A stretch of 64,000 bases of DNA from Candidatus Heimdallarchaeota archaeon (GTDB lineage Archaea > Asgardarchaeota > Heimdallarchaeia > Hodarchaeales > Hodarchaeaceae): the NCBI GenBank assembly GCA_020353515.1, contig CP070695.1, positions 1,335,637-1,399,636 of the forward strand. Direction: 5' to 3'. The notes under the pieces are model-generated. The model ran no database searches. It saw only the letters and a list, made by a program, of their open reading frames with translations, and was not told where the DNA came from. Position numbers and translations under genes: made by a program. Numbering within the stretch: position 1 is the first letter of the stretch; each line of letters opens with the position of its first letter. Positions 42,301-52,653 of the stretch are shown here, piece after piece.

Positions 42301-43287
42301 ATGAAAGAAAACTTTATTAAAGCTAGTAACGCCCTTACACGATTAAATACTAGCGTATCAACCAATGCTCGAAGTGCTGCTGATATTACGATTAAAATTT
42401 ATACAAGATTCGAAGAAATCCGATATGTAAGTGAAACCATACCTGATTTTATTCTTCATCCTGACCAATCAATGTCCAATCTCAAATCGAGCGGTGAAAT
42501 TAGGGTTGCACAGCTACTTGCATCCATTCTCTGTGAACGAATAGCAGAGCAATCAATACGATTAGCAGAGGATCTTGATTTTGGTGAAGAGGGCCTAGAC
42601 ATTCGTGAAGAGATTCGTGAAATTAGAGAACAAATAACCAGATTGAATGAAGTTATCCAAGTTCAGAAGAAATTAGCTGATGGAGCTCCTGTTTCAACAG
42701 AAAACATTAAGAACTTGCAGAAAAAGTACGACGTACGAATTAAACAACTAGAACAAGAATTACTTAGAAAAGAAGGTCGTGCGTTGACTGTAACAGCTTT
42801 AGATGCTACAAAGAAACCCAAACTATTTGGAAAGGGAAAATTTGAGCAAACACTTGATGATTTAATTCTTGAATATGGAAAAAATCTTCGTGCAAGTTCT
42901 GGTGGTTATATTTCACTCGCAAACCTCTATACAGCATTAAAAAATCAAGTTCCTGATGTAAAATTTTCTACAAAAGACCTCGAAAAATCCTGTAAACGGT
43001 TAAAAAAACAGGCACTTATAGAAGGAGTCTCGAAAAGAGCAGGAGTAAAAATCATAGAATTTGTCCCTGTTGCTCTAGGGAGTGACGCGAGAAAAGTTTT
43101 CGATTTAGCAGTTAATAAGGGATATGTAACCTTGGAGGATGTTATATTGGGAACAAAATGGGATCAACAGCGTGTTGTTAGAGTTCTTGAGAGTCTAGTT
43201 GAGCAAAAAATAGCACGAAAAGTCTCGTCTCTTGATACAGGGGATCAATATTATTTTCCTGGATTATATGGAGATAATGATTGGTAG
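42301..43287 (+). CDS. ESCRT-II EAP30 (Vps22/Vps36)-like protein with N-terminal coiled coil
   Basis: Tandem winged helices GGYISLANLY...STKDLEKSCKRL and GYVTLEDV...WDQQRVVRVLESLV, ending YYFPGL. Confidence 0.8.
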   Translation: MKENFIKASNALTRLNTSVSTNARSAADITIKIYTRFEEIRYVSETIPDFILHPDQSMSNLKSSGEIRVAQLLASILCERIAEQSIRLAEDLDFGEEGLDIREEIREIREQITRLNEVIQVQKKLADGAPVSTENIKNLQKKYDVRIKQLEQELLRKEGRALTVTALDATKKPKLFGKGKFEQTLDDLILEYGKNLRASSGGYISLANLYTALKNQVPDVKFSTKDLEKSCKRLKKQALIEGVSKRAGVKIIEFVPVALGSDARKVFDLAVNKGYVTLEDVILGTKWDQQRVVRVLESLVEQKIARKVSSLDTGDQYYFPGLYGDNDW

Positions 43288-43297
43288 GTGAAAACTG

Positions 43298-44188
43298 ATG
43301 GCAGAAGTAGAGAAGTATGGTGGACTATTCCGCAGAATAGGCGATGCAGTGCATATTGGCACAAAAAAATTTAAAGGAAAAGCAATCTTGAGTTCAGATT
43401 TTGGATCAGAAATAGAAAGTTCTTTGATAAGTCGAATAAAATCAGAAGATTATGACAGTTTTAGGAAACATGATGGATTTATTGTGAAAGATCCGGAGAA
43501 CGCAATATTATTACAGTCAGGATCACTAGTGGGGGTTGCAGGAAGTGGCATCTATCAACTCGAGAAGAGTGCTAAACGACCTGGAAGCGAAATTATCTGG
43601 GTAACAAAGCGTGAGTTCATCGTCAAATGGGGATCACCTGGGGTATATACTTCTGATAATATTATAATAGGCTGTTATGGAATATCTCGTATGAGAGTTG
43701 TTAATCCCCGTAATTTTATTATGAATGTAGTTTCACATAAACAGTATTATTCAGGGAACGAACTAAAAAATTGGGTTAAACAAACAATTATTGCTGCAGT
43801 AAAACATGTTATGTCTCGCTATACCGTACCCGAATTACTTAAGGAACGTCGAAGCTTAGAAATCCAAACCAGATCAGAACTTGGACCTGAAACCTCTCGA
43901 TGGGGGCTAGAACTAGTTGGATTGGACATTGGGGGTTTTAAAGTTCCTGATGAATATCAGGCTCTATTATCTTATGAAATCGAAAAGCAAGTTCTGGAAC
44001 AACAACAGGAGTTAGCAGAGCAAAGAAAAGAGCTTGATGTTGTTGCGGAGAAAGTGAAGAAATACGAACAAATGCTTGAACAAGCAGATGAAATGTTTCT
44101 AAATGGGAAAATATCAGAGGAAAAGTATAAAGAACTAACAGATAAATACTCCAAGAAATTAGCTCAAATCAAAGCTCAAATGCAATAA
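43298..44188 (+). CDS. SPFH/band-7 domain protein with C-terminal coiled coil and short helical domain
   Basis: GIYQL, VKWG, YG...RVVNPRNF, WGLELVGLDI...VP.EY; tail FLNGKISEEKYKEL. Confidence 0.8.
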   Translation: MAEVEKYGGLFRRIGDAVHIGTKKFKGKAILSSDFGSEIESSLISRIKSEDYDSFRKHDGFIVKDPENAILLQSGSLVGVAGSGIYQLEKSAKRPGSEIIWVTKREFIVKWGSPGVYTSDNIIIGCYGISRMRVVNPRNFIMNVVSHKQYYSGNELKNWVKQTIIAAVKHVMSRYTVPELLKERRSLEIQTRSELGPETSRWGLELVGLDIGGFKVPDEYQALLSYEIEKQVLEQQQELAEQRKELDVVAEKVKKYEQMLEQADEMFLNGKISEEKYKELTDKYSKKLAQIKAQMQ

Positions 44189-44212: not shown

Positions 44213-45970
44213 TTATTGATGTTCTTCCAGATCTCCACCACATTCGGGGCAGAATACCATACCTACAGAGATCATTTCTTTGAAACAGTCTACACAGACG
44301 TTTACATCACATGATGGACACAAATATTTTGTTGTTTCTTCATGTGTGACTTCGCAGACACCACAGAGAAATTCTTCTTTCTGTTTAGCTATATGTAAAG
44401 TCATTTTTTGAATATTAATCCAGCCCTGAATCTTTCCATGAAGGATATGATTCTCCAATAAGGCTACAGTCTCTCTATCAGACCGATTTAATTTTTGAAT
44501 GATTTCTTGTAAGGGAATTTCTGCTTTAGGGGTCTGTTCAAGGTATTCAAGGAGAGTAGAGTCCAAATCAGGTTTTTTTGAATTGAAAATCTCGTATTCA
44601 GTCCATCCTAGTTTCAATGGACCTTTTTTACAGAAATGACACTCTTCTGTATCAAGTAAATTAAACGAATGAGTATAATTAACCATACAGTCAGGACAAT
44701 GCCTCGGGAGGTCAATAATAAAGGCAGAAATGTTTCCACAAAAAGGACATACATGTGTACTTCCTGTAGAACGGCAATTTGAGCACATAATTCGTCTACA
44801 GTTTTGACATTCGAAATAAAGATTAGGATCTGTATAAGAAGAAGTATCTACCTGACAAAAAATGTCAAAATGTTTCATTCCTTTAACTAAAAAAGGATCA
44901 GCAGTTTCTCCAGCTGTAAGTCGAAGTCCAAAAAGTCTTCCCAACTTGTGAAGACGATTTAAGAGCTTCAATGGGTCTAGATTCAGTGATGAAGCGAGGT
45001 TCTCAACCGCAATTCCTGTTTCAAACCAGTCTTTTAATGAGGGAGCTTGGAACTCCACTTCATTCAAAGTTCCCTTTAAGCTTCGATTTAAAAGCTGTAG
45101 TATATTTAAAAACTCAATCCTGTCTACATCAAGTCGATGAAGCCAGAATTCAATAGGAATATCTCGAAAGACGAATATATCTTTCAATACTTGGCTTATT
45201 ATGTCCATAGTGGGATATAAGTACTCATAATTGGCAGAAAAAATAATTTTCAGGTCTTCACGATTATTTTCTAGTAACTGAAGACAATTTTCTTTTGTTA
45301 GTCGTGTTAATTTGCTAATGTGCTTAAGTGAAACTTCTGATTCCAACAGAAAACTTGTATCTATATAGCGATTAAGTCTTTTGATATTTCTTTGTAAACC
45401 TGATGAAGAAGAGAAGTCTAAACTTGTAAAGTTGTGCAATCGCTGAGTTATGGGATCTATGTATCCAACAAAATGACCATCTTGGGCTAGAACCTCTAAG
45501 ATACCTTCAAAGTGATCCTCGGTCCAATACAATTTGTTTAAGAGAAATTTTAAGTTTAATGAGGTGACTGTACTTAGAATCTGTTTTAATTCAGCTTTGG
45601 CTCCTTGGAGTGTGTAGAATTTACGATGAATCTGATCAAAAAAACCATCAGTATTTTGAACATTGACTTTGATCAGGGTTTCTAGTAACTCACCAGGTAA
45701 GTTTGTTCTATCAATGACATCACAGATGTCTACATAACCCTTTGCTAATTTACGAGTAATATATTGCTGAATAAATATTAGAGGAATGAATTCCTTGTCA
45801 TCAAAACTAACAAAGCCATTTAATTCCTTTGAACCGATTTTTTTTCGCAGGAATGAAGCAACTTCACTTGGATTTTCTTTTGGAGCCATTTCACGCAATT
45901 TAATAGGAGTTTGTGCCATTTGAGCTTCTGTTAACCATTTTTGTCTCTTTCTCCCAAACATTAGTCTCAC
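44213..45970 (-). CDS. Winged-helix/PCI-repeat protein with RING-like Zn fingers (E3 ligase candidate)
   Basis: Repeated WH-like units; CxxC clusters at ~370-450; PCI-like HGKIQGWIN; terminal CGVC-CPSC-CVDC-CPEC. Confidence 0.7.
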   Translation of the reverse strand: MRLMFGRKRQKWLTEAQMAQTPIKLREMAPKENPSEVASFLRKKIGSKELNGFVSFDDKEFIPLIFIQQYITRKLAKGYVDICDVIDRTNLPGELLETLIKVNVQNTDGFFDQIHRKFYTLQGAKAELKQILSTVTSLNLKFLLNKLYWTEDHFEGILEVLAQDGHFVGYIDPITQRLHNFTSLDFSSSSGLQRNIKRLNRYIDTSFLLESEVSLKHISKLTRLTKENCLQLLENNREDLKIIFSANYEYLYPTMDIISQVLKDIFVFRDIPIEFWLHRLDVDRIEFLNILQLLNRSLKGTLNEVEFQAPSLKDWFETGIAVENLASSLNLDPLKLLNRLHKLGRLFGLRLTAGETADPFLVKGMKHFDIFCQVDTSSYTDPNLYFECQNCRRIMCSNCRSTGSTHVCPFCGNISAFIIDLPRHCPDCMVNYTHSFNLLDTEECHFCKKGPLKLGWTEYEIFNSKKPDLDSTLLEYLEQTPKAEIPLQEIIQKLNRSDRETVALLENHILHGKIQGWINIQKMTLHIAKQKEEFLCGVCEVTHEETTKYLCPSCDVNVCVDCFKEMISVGMVFCPECGGDLEEHQ

Positions 45971-46105: not shown

Positions 46106-46420
46106 TTGGCTCTGAATAAGATTAAGTGTTCAAACTGCGGATATATTCCACGAGATCTCCCCGTTTCTGGGAGTTGGTATTGCCCTAAGTGTGGAAAACG
46201 CACGGTTATTCCCCAACACCGTCCACGACCTACTCGGAAATATTACAAAAAACCTACAACCACTCCCAAATCACGAGACCGAATAAGCACAAGCCTTTAT
46301 GATAAATTGACTTATGATAAACCCACAGATCATGGTTTCAAAGAACCTTATATTAACCCGAAAATCAATCCAATAATCCCGAAAAGGAGAGACAAAATCC
46401 GACTGTTCTTCAAAAAGTAA
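46106..46420 (+). CDS. Small Zn-ribbon protein with basic tail
   Basis: CSNCG ... WYCPKCG. Confidence 0.6.
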   Translation: MALNKIKCSNCGYIPRDLPVSGSWYCPKCGKRTVIPQHRPRPTRKYYKKPTTTPKSRDRISTSLYDKLTYDKPTDHGFKEPYINPKINPIIPKRRDKIRLFFKK

Positions 46421-46434
46421 TTTGTTTTCTTCTT

Positions 46435-47661
46435 TCAATCTCGAAATTTTATTTCTAGCCTGATTTCCTCATCATCAGCTATAGAACTTAGAGTGATCCT
46501 ATCACCATCAGAAATGATCTTTTGGACAGATTCATCTTCAGGTAGAAGGAAATTTCCTCGGAACCCAATATATTCTTTTTTATATTCTTGGCGAATGATA
46601 TCAATAACAGATTTAAAAAGTAACTCACGATCTACAGTTATAGTTCGTTCAACGTGCTTTACGGTATTGGATTGACCACATACCAAGCAATTTGGATCAG
46701 GAACCAGATCAAACGTATTTAAAGTTCCTGTTAAAGCTGAATAAACTGTAAAATGCGGGATACGAAATCTATGAGCTTCAATTAAATTATTCAGTGTGAC
46801 TGTTTCTTTGAGGAATTCTTTTTTCTCTAAAAAGAGAGCTTTCACGATTTCTTGTGATTGTATACCACTTGTCACCGCATTGACAGTGATTAAACTAGGT
46901 ACATGAAAAAGAATCAATTGTAAAAGCTCTTTCTTTTTAAAATCTCCAAAATTATGTTTTTTGGCACAAGTATTGGCTAATTTTGTGAGCTCAACAATAT
47001 CTTCAGGTGAGGTTTCGACAGGCTCCCTTTCATACTTTGCGTTAAATTCATAAAGAGCTTTCCAAGCACAGTGTTCTCTCACACGAGGAACTCCTACTAA
47101 AGTACAAGGAGCTGTTAAAACTCGAGTCTCATCTGGTGGTGGAGGTGTTTCGCATGCTAAACATGCTGTTTTGCTTGTTTTTATGTATTGGATTTGACCA
47201 AAATACCCATCAGTTGCTGAATCAATCAATGGAATCTTCAATTCTATTGCCATTGCGTTGAGATATTGTCGTGCCAGAAAGTTATCGACACAGCCAGCAA
47301 TTATGTCTACTTCTTGGAAAATTTTCTGGGGAATATTTTGTAATTTATCTGCGTATTCTTTAATCATGATGTCAGGATTAAATTGTTCTTTTATCCTTTT
47401 TTTGGCAATTTTTGCCTTTTTCTGACCAACATCTTCCTCCCTGAATAACATCTGCCGATTTAAATTTGAAAATTCAACAGTGTCATCATCGACTAGAATC
47501 AGACTACCAATACCTAAAAGAGCTAGATTTTTGGCTAGTTCACTGCCTGTTCCTCCCACGCCTGCAATTAAAATTGTACTTTTTTCAATGATATGTTGAT
47601 CCCAAAGAGCTAGTCGTTCCTGCCGATCATATTTAGAAGAAGAAGGAAGATCTCGTGTCAT
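46435..47661 (-). CDS. Ubiquitin-like activating enzyme E1 (eukaryote-like, UBA3/UBA2-type architecture)
   Basis: YDRQ, GVGGTG, DDDTVEFSNLNRQ, CVDN, CLAC, catalytic PCT...PR..EHC, CLVC, probable C-terminal ubiquitin-fold domain. Confidence 0.92.
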   Translation of the reverse strand: MTRDLPSSSKYDRQERLALWDQHIIEKSTILIAGVGGTGSELAKNLALLGIGSLILVDDDTVEFSNLNRQMLFREEDVGQKKAKIAKKRIKEQFNPDIMIKEYADKLQNIPQKIFQEVDIIAGCVDNFLARQYLNAMAIELKIPLIDSATDGYFGQIQYIKTSKTACLACETPPPPDETRVLTAPCTLVGVPRVREHCAWKALYEFNAKYEREPVETSPEDIVELTKLANTCAKKHNFGDFKKKELLQLILFHVPSLITVNAVTSGIQSQEIVKALFLEKKEFLKETVTLNNLIEAHRFRIPHFTVYSALTGTLNTFDLVPDPNCLVCGQSNTVKHVERTITVDRELLFKSVIDIIRQEYKKEYIGFRGNFLLPEDESVQKIISDGDRITLSSIADDEEIRLEIKFRD

Positions 47662-47699: not shown

Positions 47700-48020
47700 T
47701 TATCCTCCTTTAATTTGATCTGGAACTATCATAAGAATTGCATTTTGTTCTATTCCATAGGAAGCGAGGTTATTTGAAGGATTCATTCTTCTTCCTTTGA
47801 ATAATAAAGCGATTGGGACAACCTCTGGGATATTAAAGGCATCACGAGCCGCTGTGATAGCCTGGAAAACAGTTCCATTAATATTAATATATTTCTCCCG
47901 AATATTCTGATCTGGAGGAAGCTGTGGATCTTTAAAACGAACCTTAATCATTTTCTCAATGCCATCGTCAGGACCTTTACCTGTAGAACTAGAATCCCAA
48001 ACAACATCCTTTTTACTCAT
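47700..48020 (-). CDS. Ubiquitin-like modifier ending in GG, UFM1-like sequence features
   Basis: Beta-grasp pattern (LLFKGRRM..., LASYGI), terminal GG, directly upstream of E1. Confidence 0.88.
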   Translation of the reverse strand: MSKKDVVWDSSSTGKGPDDGIEKMIKVRFKDPQLPPDQNIREKYININGTVFQAITAARDAFNIPEVVPIALLFKGRRMNPSNNLASYGIEQNAILMIVPDQIKGG

Positions 48021-48040
48021 TTTTTCACCTTCTGTTTGAC

Positions 48041-48829
48041 TTAAGTATAAAACTTTCGTTCAATTTCTGAGAGTGTAGTAAGAATATCAATTCTTCCTTT
48101 AGCATAATCTTCTAAAGATCCTCGAATAAGCGGATATTTTGTAAGAATTTCATTTTCAAGACCTATGGGGAGATTCTTCTTTCTTTTAATAGTAAAGATT
48201 ATTACTTCGCCATCTTGGGCATAAAACCTTACAGTAATCTCTTTCTTCGACGCTGATGCGTCATAATTAGAAAGAATTTGACGTATGAGAGGATCACGTT
48301 CTTCTTGAGTAGCAGGAACCTCTGCTATGGAAACGGGCTCTCCCATAACTTGGGGCATTCTTTCAGCAGTTTTTTGATGAATCTCTTCTAAAACATCTAA
48401 AATTGTACTAGAACCAGGTGACCAGTTTCTCATATTATCTAAATCATTGATTTCACAATCTAAAACTTCTCGGAGCTTAGCAGGGCCATCAATATAGGGT
48501 CGGTCAGGTAAATCATCTAACACAATTAAAAGAGGGAATGCATATTCATTGACTTGCATCTTGATTCGTATTTTCCCTACTTCATCCCCAATAAATTCCC
48601 CTGGAAAGTTTTCAAGTAATTTTTGTGATTCTTGATAGATGAGATAGTAACTCTCCGCTTCTTCCGCTTCATCCAGTGCTTTAGCTTCTGTTGGTGTAAT
48701 AGCTGTTCGTTTTAAGTAATTTGAAAGATCACAGTATTCACACTTTACAGGATGTTGGAATGTTGGGCGTACTTGAAGTGGAGCTCCACAACCGCTACAT
48801 TGGGAAACATCGGTTTGGGTATCAGCCAT
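48041..48829 (-). CDS. Zn-ribbon plus probable catalytically inactive UBC/RWD-like domain protein
   Basis: CSGCG...CEYC; LIVLDDLPDRPYI and NWSPGSSTILDVLEEI resemble the UBC-fold YP..PP and W.P...I..VL..I elements; first gene of Ubl-E1 operon. Confidence 0.55.
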   Translation of the reverse strand: MADTQTDVSQCSGCGAPLQVRPTFQHPVKCEYCDLSNYLKRTAITPTEAKALDEAEEAESYYLIYQESQKLLENFPGEFIGDEVGKIRIKMQVNEYAFPLLIVLDDLPDRPYIDGPAKLREVLDCEINDLDNMRNWSPGSSTILDVLEEIHQKTAERMPQVMGEPVSIAEVPATQEERDPLIRQILSNYDASASKKEITVRFYAQDGEVIIFTIKRKKNLPIGLENEILTKYPLIRGSLEDYAKGRIDILTTLSEIERKFYT

Positions 48830-49467: not shown

Positions 49468-50019
49468 TTGCAGGATCTTCACTCAAGACGATTACGAGAA
49501 GAATTTAAGAGAATGCTAAAGACATATCCTCCGAAAACAAGTCATATCAAGTGGGTTATTGTTAACAATGATCTACATCATTATAAAGCTACAATTAAGG
49601 GAAAAAAAGACACTCCTTATGACGGGGGTGAGTTCGAGATCACTATCGATCTCCCTCCTGAATATCCCTTTAAACCACCGATTTGCAACTTTATAACCCC
49701 TATCTATCACCCCAATATTGCAATTGGTAAAACACAATGGAAATGGGGCTCCAATGTCTGTTTAAGTCTTGTTAATTGGAATAATCTAGGAAAACCTGGT
49801 GGATGGAAGGAAACAATCACCTTACCTAGTGTATTTGAACATATTGAAATGATGCTGGATGTGTATCAGGCAACTGGAGATGTTGATTTTCCAGAATATC
49901 TTGTTGATCCCAATGATCCTTTTAATCCTGAAGCTGGAGAGGCTATGAGACAAAATTTTGATAATTTCTGGGACACAGCTGAAGAATGGACTAAAAAGCA
50001 CGCACTTCTTATCGAATAG
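49468..50019 (+). CDS. Ubiquitin-conjugating enzyme E2
   Basis: RRLREE, G..DTPYDGGEF, YPFKPP, IYHPNI, catalytic VCLSL, W..TI. Confidence 0.95.
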   Translation: MQDLHSRRLREEFKRMLKTYPPKTSHIKWVIVNNDLHHYKATIKGKKDTPYDGGEFEITIDLPPEYPFKPPICNFITPIYHPNIAIGKTQWKWGSNVCLSLVNWNNLGKPGGWKETITLPSVFEHIEMMLDVYQATGDVDFPEYLVDPNDPFNPEAGEAMRQNFDNFWDTAEEWTKKHALLIE

Positions 50020-50035
50020 GCATTGTGAGTGCACT

Positions 50036-50536
50036 ATGTCTGAAATTGAAGATCTATCTATCCCTTCATCCCCTAAAGTCAAATCAGTTACTCTTATGGG
50101 AGCACTACTTGATGAAATGACCAAATATTCGAAGGAGGCTATGCCTAAGGAAGCCATTGGCCTTCTAGGCGGAAAAGAACTCCGGACTGATGAACTAATA
50201 TTATCTAGTATTCTCTTTGTTACGGAGGGTGACGAAGTTTCTGTTTCCTTTTCTGATGAGGATTTTAAAGCTTTTGAAGACATCTTAGAGAATGATTGTT
50301 ATTGTTTGGGATGGTGGCATTCTCACCCTGGATACGGCTTGTTTTTATCTCAAACGGATATTAAGACTCATATATACTCTTTTCAGCTACATAATGAACT
50401 TTCTGTTGCGTTAGTAGTTGAACCTACAAAGATCGATATGAATGGCCGCGCATCTTTCCAATTTTATCAAGTTATTCGTGAAAAAGGGAGTAATTCCTTC
50501 AAATATCAGGAAATTGCAAGTTATATTCAACCTTAA
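50036..50536 (+). CDS. JAMM/MPN+ isopeptidase (Rpn11/AMSH-like)
   Basis: EAIGLLGG and GWWHSHPGYGLFLSQTD (complete E-HxH-S-D motif); start taken at MSEIE. Confidence 0.93.
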   Translation: MSEIEDLSIPSSPKVKSVTLMGALLDEMTKYSKEAMPKEAIGLLGGKELRTDELILSSILFVTEGDEVSVSFSDEDFKAFEDILENDCYCLGWWHSHPGYGLFLSQTDIKTHIYSFQLHNELSVALVVEPTKIDMNGRASFQFYQVIREKGSNSFKYQEIASYIQP

Positions 50537-50706: not shown

Positions 50707-51507
50707 ATGAGTTCGATGATGTCAGCCTTGGATCTTTTCAGACTTCCTCTCAAATATTCCACTCGTATTTTTCTCCAAAATGGATATGGGATAATAGATT
50801 ATATCGTGTTGTTTTTGGGTCCAGGGACTGTTTTATTCTTTACTTTCTACCTATTATGGTCTGGACGACGAAAAAATCAAAAAATTATGGATTTAGCGAG
50901 AGAGGCTTTACTCGAAGTCTTTGCAGAGGAATTTGATGATCTCGTTATGGAAGAGAAGAGTTCAAATGGAGGTTTACTCATTCCAAAGTATAAGAAATCA
51001 CAAACCTTATCATTCAAGGATTTTCGAGTGGTTTTTGCTTTGGAAGAAAGACATCTTATGCTTTCAGTCATCATTTCTTGGTTTGCAGGGGTAAATGATT
51101 ACATTGCCTTGGAAGCTAACGCTAAGAAAGGAAAAATCCCTACAAAAATTCAGATTATTCCGAAAAATGAAGAAGGCCAAATCAAGAAACATCAAGAACT
51201 CTTATTTAAACTCGAGGAAATTGAACTCGGTATAAAACAATTAGATGAGTTTTTCTTATTGAAAGCAACTTCTCAACGAGCGGGGACATATTTTCTCGGG
51301 GATAAGAATCTATTGAGATTGCTTCACAATATACGAAAAGTTGTCGTCCGAATATCAATCAATTCTGCTGAAGATCCCTCCATTCGTATCTATGCAAGGA
51401 TCAACGAAGATCTAAGTCTTGAAAAGGTGCAAGAATTCTTCCTTGCATTATGTGAGCGCGTAAATGAGGTCTCTGAGAAAGTAGTCATGAAGAAGAAACG
51501 GCCTTAG
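50707..51507 (+). CDS. CCDC47/DUF1682-like (PAT complex) single-pass membrane protein
   Basis: TM followed by SGRRKNQKI; later ALEERHLMLSVIISWF; same layout as CCDC47 G..KN..IA and L..RQD segments. Confidence 0.6.
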   Translation: MSSMMSALDLFRLPLKYSTRIFLQNGYGIIDYIVLFLGPGTVLFFTFYLLWSGRRKNQKIMDLAREALLEVFAEEFDDLVMEEKSSNGGLLIPKYKKSQTLSFKDFRVVFALEERHLMLSVIISWFAGVNDYIALEANAKKGKIPTKIQIIPKNEEGQIKKHQELLFKLEEIELGIKQLDEFFLLKATSQRAGTYFLGDKNLLRLLHNIRKVVVRISINSAEDPSIRIYARINEDLSLEKVQEFFLALCERVNEVSEKVVMKKKRP

Positions 51508-51528: not shown

Positions 51529-52092
51529 TTACAAGAGCTCGATTTTCTCAGTCACTCTCTGACGAAGCCACTCAAGTCCTTCCTCTACATTGAACCCAGT
51601 TTTAGCAGATGTTGGTACAATGGCATATGAATGCGTGGTGACTTTGTGGAGGTTTAGTCCTCGGGCAACTTCCCCCGCAGATGCTGCGGAAGGTAAATCT
51701 TGTTTATTTGCAAGAACTAGAATAGGAATGTTTTCAACTTTGTCATTGTCAAGAACATATTTCCATAATTCTATCTTTGCTTCATCTATTCGTGATCTAT
51801 CAGCACTATCGACTACATATACGATTCCCATACTACCTGACATGTAACTTTCCCATAAAGACTCACGAAATGCTTCTTGGCCTCCAATGTCCCACGAAAT
51901 AAAACGAACGTTTCCTGAACTAAATTCATCAACATTCATGCCCAATGTTCGAAAAGTACTACTATCAAATTCCCCAGAAGTAATTCTTTTGACAAGAGTA
52001 GTTTTTCCAGCTTGGTCAAGACCAAGCCAAGCAATCTTGACAGTCAATTTTTCTTTAGCAAATTTTGCTCGTAACTTTGAAAGGAAACTCAT
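51529..52092 (-). CDS. Arf/Arl-like small GTPase with N-terminal amphipathic helix
   Basis: GLDQAGKTT, TLGMN, WDIGGQ..FR..W..Y, NKQD, SAKTG. Confidence 0.93.
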   Translation of the reverse strand: MSFLSKLRAKFAKEKLTVKIAWLGLDQAGKTTLVKRITSGEFDSSTFRTLGMNVDEFSSGNVRFISWDIGGQEAFRESLWESYMSGSMGIVYVVDSADRSRIDEAKIELWKYVLDNDKVENIPILVLANKQDLPSAASAGEVARGLNLHKVTTHSYAIVPTSAKTGFNVEEGLEWLRQRVTEKIELL

Positions 52093-52107
52093 TTAGGGCA
52101 CCTATCT

Positions 52108-52653
52108 TTATTTCCGCATCATTTTACTCCGGAATCTATCACTCATCCACTGCCATGGTTCATCAACACCATCACCAGTTAAAGCTGAGCAAGGGTAAAC
52201 TGCAAAGGTTCTGGGTCTTGTAGCCATTTCTGTTTCGAGCTTTAGTGTATGGATAATATTCTCTAAGGACATTGCTTCTGTTAAATCTTGTTTATTTGCC
52301 AAAAAAAGAAATGCAGAGTCTTCTGGTGCCCATTGGATAACGTTTTTTAACCATACTCCCGCATTCTCCACTTTAGACCTGTCTGCAGAGTCAAAAACGA
52401 AAACAATGCCAGATGCCTCTGAAACGAATGGCTCCCACAAGCTTGTAGGATATGTGGGTTGTCCTCCGAGATCTACTGCCATTACTTCAATATCTCCAAT
52501 TTTTAGAGTCTCAATATTCATTCCCATGGTGGGAACGGTCTCTAGATTGTCGTCGCCCTTAAGACGCTTAACTAATGTAGTTTTTCCTGCATTGGCTAAG
52601 CCTACAAATGCGATTTGATTCTCAATTTCACGACCAAACAATTTCGTCGGCAT
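52108..52653 (-). CDS. Arf/Arl-like small GTPase
   Basis: GLANAGKTT, PTMGMN, DLGGQ, NKQD, CSALTG. Confidence 0.92.
   Translation of the reverse strand: MPTKLFGREIENQIAFVGLANAGKTTLVKRLKGDDNLETVPTMGMNIETLKIGDIEVMAVDLGGQPTYPTSLWEPFVSEASGIVFVFDSADRSKVENAGVWLKNVIQWAPEDSAFLFLANKQDLTEAMSLENIIHTLKLETEMATRPRTFAVYPCSALTGDGVDEPWQWMSDRFRSKMMRK

Follow-up and report, generated by a model that had tools for sequence, protein, structure and literature searches.

Does a small gene in the genome of a Hodarchaeales archaeon encode a modifier that is specifically related to UFM1, or a divergent member of the ubiquitin family? The question arises because the original prediction, made from the sequence of this locus, described its product as a hybrid of UFM1 and ubiquitin and possibly as an intermediate between the two. 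It bears on the wider issue of how the ubiquitin-like tags of eukaryotes diversified, and Hodarchaeales have been reported to count among the nearest relatives of eukaryotes known in the archaea. The source assembly is a single contig of 4.94 Mb with a completeness of 96%, and the window, by which we mean the whole stretch of 64,000 nucleotides that was analysed, corresponds to G000:C1:1335637-1399636.

The Ubl gene and its product

The gene for the ubiquitin-like protein, hereafter Ubl, has the following features (positions in the window):

47700..48020, minus strand: Ubl gene, an open reading frame of 106 codons (106 residues) with a beta-grasp core at residues 23-100 and GG followed by TAA at its end
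47703..47708, minus strand: C-terminal Gly105-Gly106, the presumed conjugation end, abutting the stop codon and part of an invariant IVPDQIKGG
47916..47930, minus strand: DPQLP, residues 31-35, invariant in 22 family members, at the start of an extended beta1-beta2 loop and paired with DPRLP of UFM1 by BLASTP and hhalign
47955..48020, minus strand: N-terminal extension, residues 1-22, a tail modelled at low confidence with a variable S/T/K/P linker
47994..48014, minus strand: tail motif KKDVVWD, residues 3-9, with G[IV][DN][FY]G at the same place in distant members of the family alignment
48025..48030, minus strand: Shine-Dalgarno-like AGGTGA, a few bases before the ATG and inside the 20-nucleotide gap that follows the stop codon of the upstream gene

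The Ubl gene is real, and nearly all of 20 orthologous loci have AGGTGA or a one-base variant of it a few bases ahead of the start codon. Across the genus the Ubl is 85-94% identical, which is above the values for the E1 encoded beside it (58-77%) and for a neighbouring 585-residue protein that is a candidate E3 (44-67%), and this indicates strong purifying selection on the Ubl. The family was found in 22 of 301 Asgard genomes including the source genome, and in 3 of 70 genera. Besides the source, 19 of the 20 further genomes of its genus carry it, and outside the genus it occurs in one sister family and in a single distant genome. A word-indexed search returned 38 homologues, the named ones being labelled Hodarchaeales or Hodarchaeota apart from a few MAG labels of Heimdall-, Thor-, Odin- or Promethearchaeota. 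When 1.84 billion representatives were searched exhaustively with the profile, only about six single-domain clusters of the Ubl family came up, the remaining matches being polyubiquitin-like repeats; the search reaches the polyubiquitins as well as a bridging single-domain protein (P0230, Pfam ubiquitin 6e-12). The columns that are invariant in the alignment of 22 members include D31-P35 (DPQLP), N80-P81 and I98-G106, and the UFM1-like motifs of the Ubl fall among them.

At its C terminus the Ubl reads IVPDQIKGG with the stop codon TAA immediately after GG. In 7 of the 22 homologues in the family alignment one to three extra residues follow the GG, which is itself invariant, and the existence of such residues points to the Gly-Gly as the processed, functional end. 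We presume, from the sequence, that it is also the end at which the Ubl would be activated.

At the other end of the protein, where the original prediction had a disordered extension of about 20 residues carrying a VVWD motif, the N-terminal 22 or so residues are modelled at low confidence, residues 8-18 of the AlphaFold2 model having a pLDDT under 50, and KKDV[VI]WD is kept in 20 of 20 loci of the genus. Synonymous changes have occurred at five of its seven codons (GAT/GAC, GTN, AAA/AAG), while the ten or so residues after the motif vary freely across the 20 loci. KKDV[VI]WD has the look of a short linear motif carried by a flexible arm, and probably it would serve as a docking motif. It resembles the IDWG/D shuffled ATG8/UFM1-interacting motif (sAIM) of C53 (PMC10183829), but this is a matter of resemblance only.

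Affinities to ubiquitin and to UFM1

The AlphaFold2 model obtained with the family alignment is a beta-grasp fold with a core pLDDT of 76-87, in which the extended loop with DPQLP sits between strands 23-30 and 40-47. Among the matches listed by Foldseek and VIA, ISG15, ubiquitin, NEDD8 and SUMO are closest of the solved structures; Foldseek ranks NEDD8, ubiquitin and SUMO first, and the top fold matches include both SUMO1 and SUMO2. The best Pfam match of the window Ubl is Rad60-SLD (28.0 bits against a cut-off of 23.8, E 2e-6), the ubiquitin profile (PF00240) scores 22.7 bits (E 8e-5) and so stays under its curated cut-off of 25.4, and both profiles match 22 of the 22 members scanned. Aligned by hhalign, the Ubl family and ubiquitin reach 90.6% probability (E 1.3e-6) with their GG ends in register. 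Furthermore, LLFKG and LASYGI, which had been singled out as ubiquitin-like, are both present and form with the GG end a block that pairs with ubiquitin residues 43-76 at a pairwise E of 3e-5. With filters off, the window Ubl is given 14.7 bits by the ubiquitin HMM and 2.3 bits by the UFM1 HMM, and in the opposite direction the HMM of the Ubl family gives ubiquitin 14-30 bits and UFM1 5.5-6.8 bits. We therefore consider it likely that the Ubl is a lineage-restricted, divergent and conjugatable modifier of the ubiquitin family, that is a beta-grasp protein like ubiquitin, NEDD8 and SUMO, and that it is encoded by its gene in mature form.

With ubiquitin, NEDD8 and ISG15 the Ubl has in common the fold and the pattern of the C-terminal half (LLFKG..L.SYGI..L.IV...GG, compared with LIFAGKQL..L.DYNI..L.LV.RLRGG in ubiquitin), and the partner enzymes encoded in the Ubl cluster are likewise of the canonical E1 and UBC-type E2 kind. 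It is however only this C-terminal half that aligns to ubiquitin by sequence; the N-terminal half is without a sequence match there and aligns better with UFM1. The Ubl further differs from ubiquitin in a tail that is one residue longer, in a Pfam score under the cut-off and, as read from the pairwise alignment, in having no lysine at the positions of K48 and K63. The likeness to SUMO and Rad60-SLD consists of the best Pfam match, which is over its cut-off, of the flexible N-terminal tail and GG end, and of an E1 whose Cys segment is best aligned to SAE2, whereas the single E1 gene of 408 residues, with no SAE1-like partner seen in the cluster, and an E2 nearest to UBC4/5 are unlike the SUMO system.

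The UFM1 sequences for the comparison were fetched with a 78-residue fragment that is 100% identical to records named ubiquitin-fold modifier 1; alignments were built for UFM1, from the records found by this fragment, and for ubiquitin. The by-eye alignment to UFM1 from which the original prediction started is reproduced by BLASTP and Smith-Waterman in the same register (DPQLP/DPRLP, FQAIT..FNIP/F.AVL..FKV, GRRMNP/GIGINP, LMIVP/LRIIP), with all the motifs quoted in it present. BLASTP of the window Ubl against UFM1 gives 25% identity over 84 columns (single-comparison E 0.006), and taking BLASTP and hhalign together the likeness is collinear and full-length, with 25-28% identity over 76-84 columns. 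It is also above chance, the Smith-Waterman shuffle test yielding a z of 5.9 with a score that was reached by none of 1000 shuffles. Against ubiquitin the corresponding z is 7.0, and between UFM1 and ubiquitin it is 1.0, so that in pairwise comparison the Ubl scores about equally against two proteins that miss each other. Over 41 family members z has a median of 7.0 against ubiquitin and of 5.6-6.2 against UFM1; for 7 of the 41 the score against UFM1 is the higher one, and the highest value against UFM1 is 9.0 (P0032 and P0034); the mixed likeness is therefore a reproducible property of the family.

These observations speak for a reading in which eukaryotic UFM1 has its nearest extant prokaryotic relative in the Ubl family, which would already work with a UFL1-like ligase but still with a canonical E1 and E2, and in which eukaryotes later recruited UBA5, UFC1 and UFSP and lost one terminal glycine. 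Such a relation is in agreement with the DPxLP, NP and [IV]P positions, which are common to the Ubl family and UFM1 and invariant in both, and with the UFM1 HMM, which with filters off gives family members -1 to 12.3 bits and ubiquitin 0.4 bits. In a maximum-likelihood tree (LG+C20+F+G4) UFM1 moreover joins the Ubl family with a support of 89/95. The branch leading to UFM1 is however very long (3.86), and the alternative, which places UFM1 beside ubiquitin, is not rejected by the AU test (delta lnL 1.9, p 0.367), so that the tree joining UFM1 to the family is not significantly better; the status of the family as an evolutionary intermediate is unproven.

Profile comparisons likewise argue against a UFM1 relation. 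The hhalign probability of the Ubl family against UFM1 is 2.4% (E 0.019), compared with 1.5% for UFM1 against ubiquitin. Pfam Ufm1 (PF03671) has no match up to E 10 in the 22 members that Rad60-SLD and ubiquitin match without exception, and its best score, in the distant family member P0159, is 12.6 bits (E 0.13) against a cut-off of 27 bits. Nothing reaches that cut-off in the six frames of the source genome, in which there is only noise (E 0.6 inside an open reading frame of 748 residues), or in the 301 Asgard genomes, in which there are eight weak sub-threshold matches, five of them inside open reading frames of 270-920 residues. Compared with PDB sequences, Ubl residues 19-69 alone match neither UFM1 nor ubiquitin, the whole Ubl matches UFM1 chains at E 0.5-1.5 only, and the profile search with the Ubl has no UFM1 chain in its top 60. 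Nor are UFM1 chains found among the matches listed in the structural searches (the best 50 of Foldseek, VIA on Foldseek's 1000 best, and VIA against 48,161 representatives), in which the solved structures closest to the Ubl are those of the ubiquitin type named above. The likeness to UFM1, then, is collinear and of the twilight-zone kind, made up of DPxLP after strand 1, G..[IM]NP and L.I[IV]P; a UFL1 homologue is encoded near the Ubl. The likeness is offset by a GG end where UFM1 orthologues have a single glycine, in an invariant ..RDRVG that is followed by 1-8 extra residues in the UFM1 alignment, and by a beta1-beta2 loop that is 5-6 residues longer in the Ubl. Likeness to UFM1 is furthermore not unique to the 106-residue Ubl family, since one of the other Ubl proteins of the source genome, with 115 residues (locus L011), has a z of 5.7 against UFM1.

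Membership of the UFM1 family was rejected on the absence of a Pfam Ufm1 match, the hhalign probability, the GG end and the non-UFM1-type enzymes. Nonetheless we can conclude that the UFM1 likeness of the Ubl, with its DPxLP loop, xNP and [IV]P, is real, that it lies in the twilight zone, and that it marks a divergent lineage of the ubiquitin family. Of the hybrid originally envisaged, the mixed pairwise likeness is thus measurable and stands, but profiles, the structures listed as nearest and partner enzymes side with ubiquitin. Twilight-zone homologues of Ufm1 have been described in nine Asgard clades from structure-guided searches in 2026 (PMC12962969). They are likewise beta-grasp proteins of twilight-zone similarity to UFM1, and Hodarchaeales-related lineages were within the scope of that study; the set however spans nine major Asgard clades, whereas the Ubl family was found in 3 of the 70 genera searched.

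The putative conjugation enzymes and the UFL1-like neighbour

The following genes surround that of the Ubl:

44213..45970, minus strand: 585-residue protein with a UFL1-like winged-helix array, then a Cys-rich cluster, a PCI/DDRGK-like winged helix and a C-terminal RING-like finger; candidate E3
46106..46420, plus strand: 104-residue Zn-ribbon protein, between the E3 candidate and the E1, with synteny kept
46435..47661, minus strand: E1 of 408 residues and canonical type (ThiF E 2e-55), directly downstream of the Ubl in the same operon
48041..48829, minus strand: 262-residue protein with a Zn ribbon (CxxC...CxxC) at its N terminus; the Ubl-E1 operon begins with its gene
49468..50019, plus strand: E2 of 183 residues with HPN and Cys (UQ_con E 9e-25), divergently transcribed
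50036..50536, plus strand: JAMM/MPN+ protease with an intact HSHP...S..D (JAB E 8e-11), the likely start being an internal Met of the open reading frame 49958-50536

As judged from sequence comparison, the enzymes of this cluster are of the ubiquitin/SUMO/NEDD8 type and not of the UBA5/UFC1/UFSP type. Against the PDB the E1 matches UBA1, SAE2 and UBA3 at 3e-38 to 3e-29 and UBA5 at 6e-17, and its segment APCTLVGVPRVREHC pairs with GCTIRNTPSEPIHC of SAE2, which places Cys186 on the Cys of the GCTIRN motif (C173, chain numbering) that we take to be the catalytic Cys of SAE2. The best PDB matches of the E2 are UBC4/UbcH5 at about 4e-20. As to the JAMM protease, the listed open reading frame (49958-50536) begins at TTG and overlaps the E2 gene by 62 nucleotides, and since alignments of orthologues cover only the last 145-176 of its 192 residues, translation more likely starts at the internal Met at 50036. 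The cluster thus differs from the UFM1 system in having an E1 nearer to UBA1/SAE2/UBA3 than to UBA5, an E2 that is not UFC1 and a protease of the JAMM type instead of UFSP. In the one-contig source assembly there is, in addition, no match to the UFC1 family and nothing over the cut-off for Peptidase_C78 (UFSP) or for the DDRGK profile.

Archaeal beta-grasp proteins that end in GG and are encoded beside ThiF-family enzymes are often sulfur carriers of the SAMP/Urm1 kind, and it may be asked whether the Ubl is a protein tag at all. It could instead be a sulfur carrier of the MoaD/ThiS/SAMP/Urm1 type or a non-covalent ubiquitin-like binding module, its GG serving for thiocarboxylation or for nothing. 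The E1 however has a Cys segment of the SAE2/UBA3 type and ThiF as the sole Pfam domain that reaches its cut-off, the best fold matches of the Ubl are modifiers of the ubiquitin type, and MoaD/ThiS/SAMP/Urm1 carriers have an E1 without an E2 and often a rhodanese domain, whereas the conserved Ubl cluster has a UBC-type E2 with HPN and Cys as well as a JAMM enzyme. On account of these two partners the sulfur-carrier reading was rejected, and that the Ubl is anything other than a protein tag is altogether very improbable.

All five genomes that were checked in the genus have one and the same gene order, which runs EAP30/Vps36-like, SPFH, 585-residue protein, Zn ribbon, E1, Ubl, 262-residue protein, E2, JAMM, 266-residue membrane protein and two Arf-like GTPases. 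The sister family retains the order 262-Ubl-E1, and the distant Asgard genome retains Ubl-E1-E2-JAMM. The 262-residue protein has no Pfam match and no PDB match, including by profile search against the PDB, and its predicted complex with the Ubl scored 0.25 against a mark of 0.32, a result that counts neither way on binding. The 266-residue protein (50707-51507, plus strand), which is syntenic and follows the E2 and JAMM genes, has an N-terminal hydrophobic stretch that is likely a membrane anchor. A profile search of the PDB gave nothing significant for it, and four of six orthologues have weak matches to Pfam CCDC47 (PAT complex), the best at E 0.0013. The ESCRT-II-like EAP30/Vps36 gene and the SPFH gene (42301-44188, plus strand) flank the cluster on one side and the two tandem Arf-family GTPase genes (51529-52653, minus strand) on the other, both pairs being syntenic across the genus.

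The 585-residue protein is a homologue of UFL1 by sequence profile and by its predicted fold. Searched against the PDB, its family profile has UFL1 as all of its best four matches (E 4.5e-6 to 7.6e-5), and Foldseek with the AlphaFold2 model (pLDDT 87.7) again has UFL1 in each of its first five places, at E 8e-10 to 4e-8 and with alignments of about 365 columns, the first other fold being SelB at 3.5e-4. Pfam PF09743 matches three of six orthologues at the protein level, although the scan of the source genome with this profile gave nothing up to E 1. The last 55 residues have weak matches to RING fingers (BRE1, MAT1, UHRF1). Homology to UFL1 fits a report of an Asgard origin for UFL1 and DDRGK1 (PMC10183829) and another of UFL1 domains in proteins of Asgard archaea (bioRxiv 10.1101/2020.10.19.343400).

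The presence of a UFL1 homologue by profile and fold, about 1.7 kb from the Ubl gene and in the same conserved cluster, counts again in favour of the reading that makes the Ubl family the closest prokaryotic relative of UFM1, as do the published Asgard origin of UFL1 and DDRGK1, the Ufm1 homologues of nine Asgard clades and the weak CCDC47 matches of the downstream membrane protein. The linkage of the two genes is however confined to one genus. In the sister family the UFL1-like gene lies with EAP30 and SPFH on one contig and 262-Ubl-E1 on another, and around the UFL1-like open reading frames of six other Asgard genomes neither a Ubl nor an E1 or E2 is encoded within 8-10 kb. With an E1, E2 and protease that are not of the UFM1 type, no UFC1, UFSP or DDRGK over cut-off in the genome, and a family as narrow as this one, we regard such an origin of UFM1 as unlikely. 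A further-reaching version, according to which the family is the nearest living relative of the UFM1 ancestor, forms together with the UFL1-like/RING and CCDC47-like membrane proteins a 'proto-UFMylation' on a canonical E1 and E2, and has in its sAIM-like KKDV[VI]WD an early UFM1/ATG8 docking code, appears to us quite unlikely. Together with the tree and the UFL1-like neighbour, the pairwise likeness leaves a small chance of a specific relation between the Ubl family and the UFM1 lineage.

The Ubl system is instead a variant of the known archaeal ubiquitin-type systems and not a UFM1 system. The closest known systems are the archaeal ubiquitin operons, exemplified by the Ub/E1/E2/RING/Rpn11 operon of Caldiarchaeum subterraneum (PMC6043591), and the Asgard ubiquitin-ESCRT clusters (PMC9192718). 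In the source genome, unlike these, the GG already lies exposed before the stop codon, the Ubl has a tail of about 22 residues with KKDV[VI]WD and a nine-residue beta1-beta2 loop (DPQLPPDQN), a winged-helix array of the UFL1 kind with a RING-like end takes the place of a small RING protein as E3 candidate, and the Ubl family is confined to a few Hodarchaeales-related genera.

UFL1-like winged-helix arrays also occur at the N terminus of open reading frames of 800-950 residues in other Asgard families (loci L078-L083), which is the length class of eukaryotic UFL1, while the RING-bearing form of 585 residues was found only in the genus with the Ubl cluster and in one sister genome. The C-terminal winged helix and RING-like finger (profile positions of about 460-582) have many paralogues across the genus, in open reading frames of about 120 to 920 residues, many of them of about 550-590. 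Loci of such paralogues are found in the source genome at G000:C1:620994-621365, 3823395-3823562 and 1932249-1932407, and many others in sister genomes; their number suggests an expanded family of RING-like proteins.

A possible pathway and other Ubl genes of the genome

If the Ubl is a modifier of the ubiquitin type, we infer that the adjacent canonical E1 would adenylate Gly106 and take the Ubl onto Cys186, from which the UBC-type E2, encoded divergently, would receive it on its own Cys before it is ligated to lysines of substrates, with the 585-residue UFL1-like/RING-like protein probably acting as the E3. The JAMM enzyme would take the Ubl off again and, in those lineages that have residues after the GG, would also expose the GG end. 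Read conservatively, the locus means that in Asgard archaea several distinct tags of the ubiquitin type have evolved within a single genome and that a scaffold of the UFL1 type has been paired with a RING-like finger. It would in any case offer a compact and expressible set of tag, E1, E2, protease and UFL1-like ligase candidate, in which a ubiquitin-type tag has UFM1-like sequence features. Were the Ubl family after all the closest prokaryotic relative of UFM1, the origin of UFMylation would become directly testable in vitro.

The source genome contains further Ubl genes outside the window. One of these (G000:C1:3976756-3976953, minus strand; locus L010 1480-1764) encodes a protein of 94 residues that is more ubiquitin-like (Pfam ubiquitin 3e-15), and it follows that the 106-residue Ubl is not simply the ubiquitin of the organism. 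The tail of the 94-residue protein, ..TGGFPN, would need processing. Its gene adjoins one for a 335-residue ThiF-type E1-like protein, one for what is possibly a KaiC/RecA-like ATPase, to go by its sequence, and one for a small GTPase, and no E2 is found nearby. Two tandem genes at G000:C1:3886476-3887440 (minus strand; locus L011 671-1824) encode the 115-residue Ubl mentioned above and one of 158 residues, both with acidic N-terminal tails. Their ends read ..IPHSTAG and ..IPVSTAGIYY, the protein of 115 residues thus ending in a single glycine.
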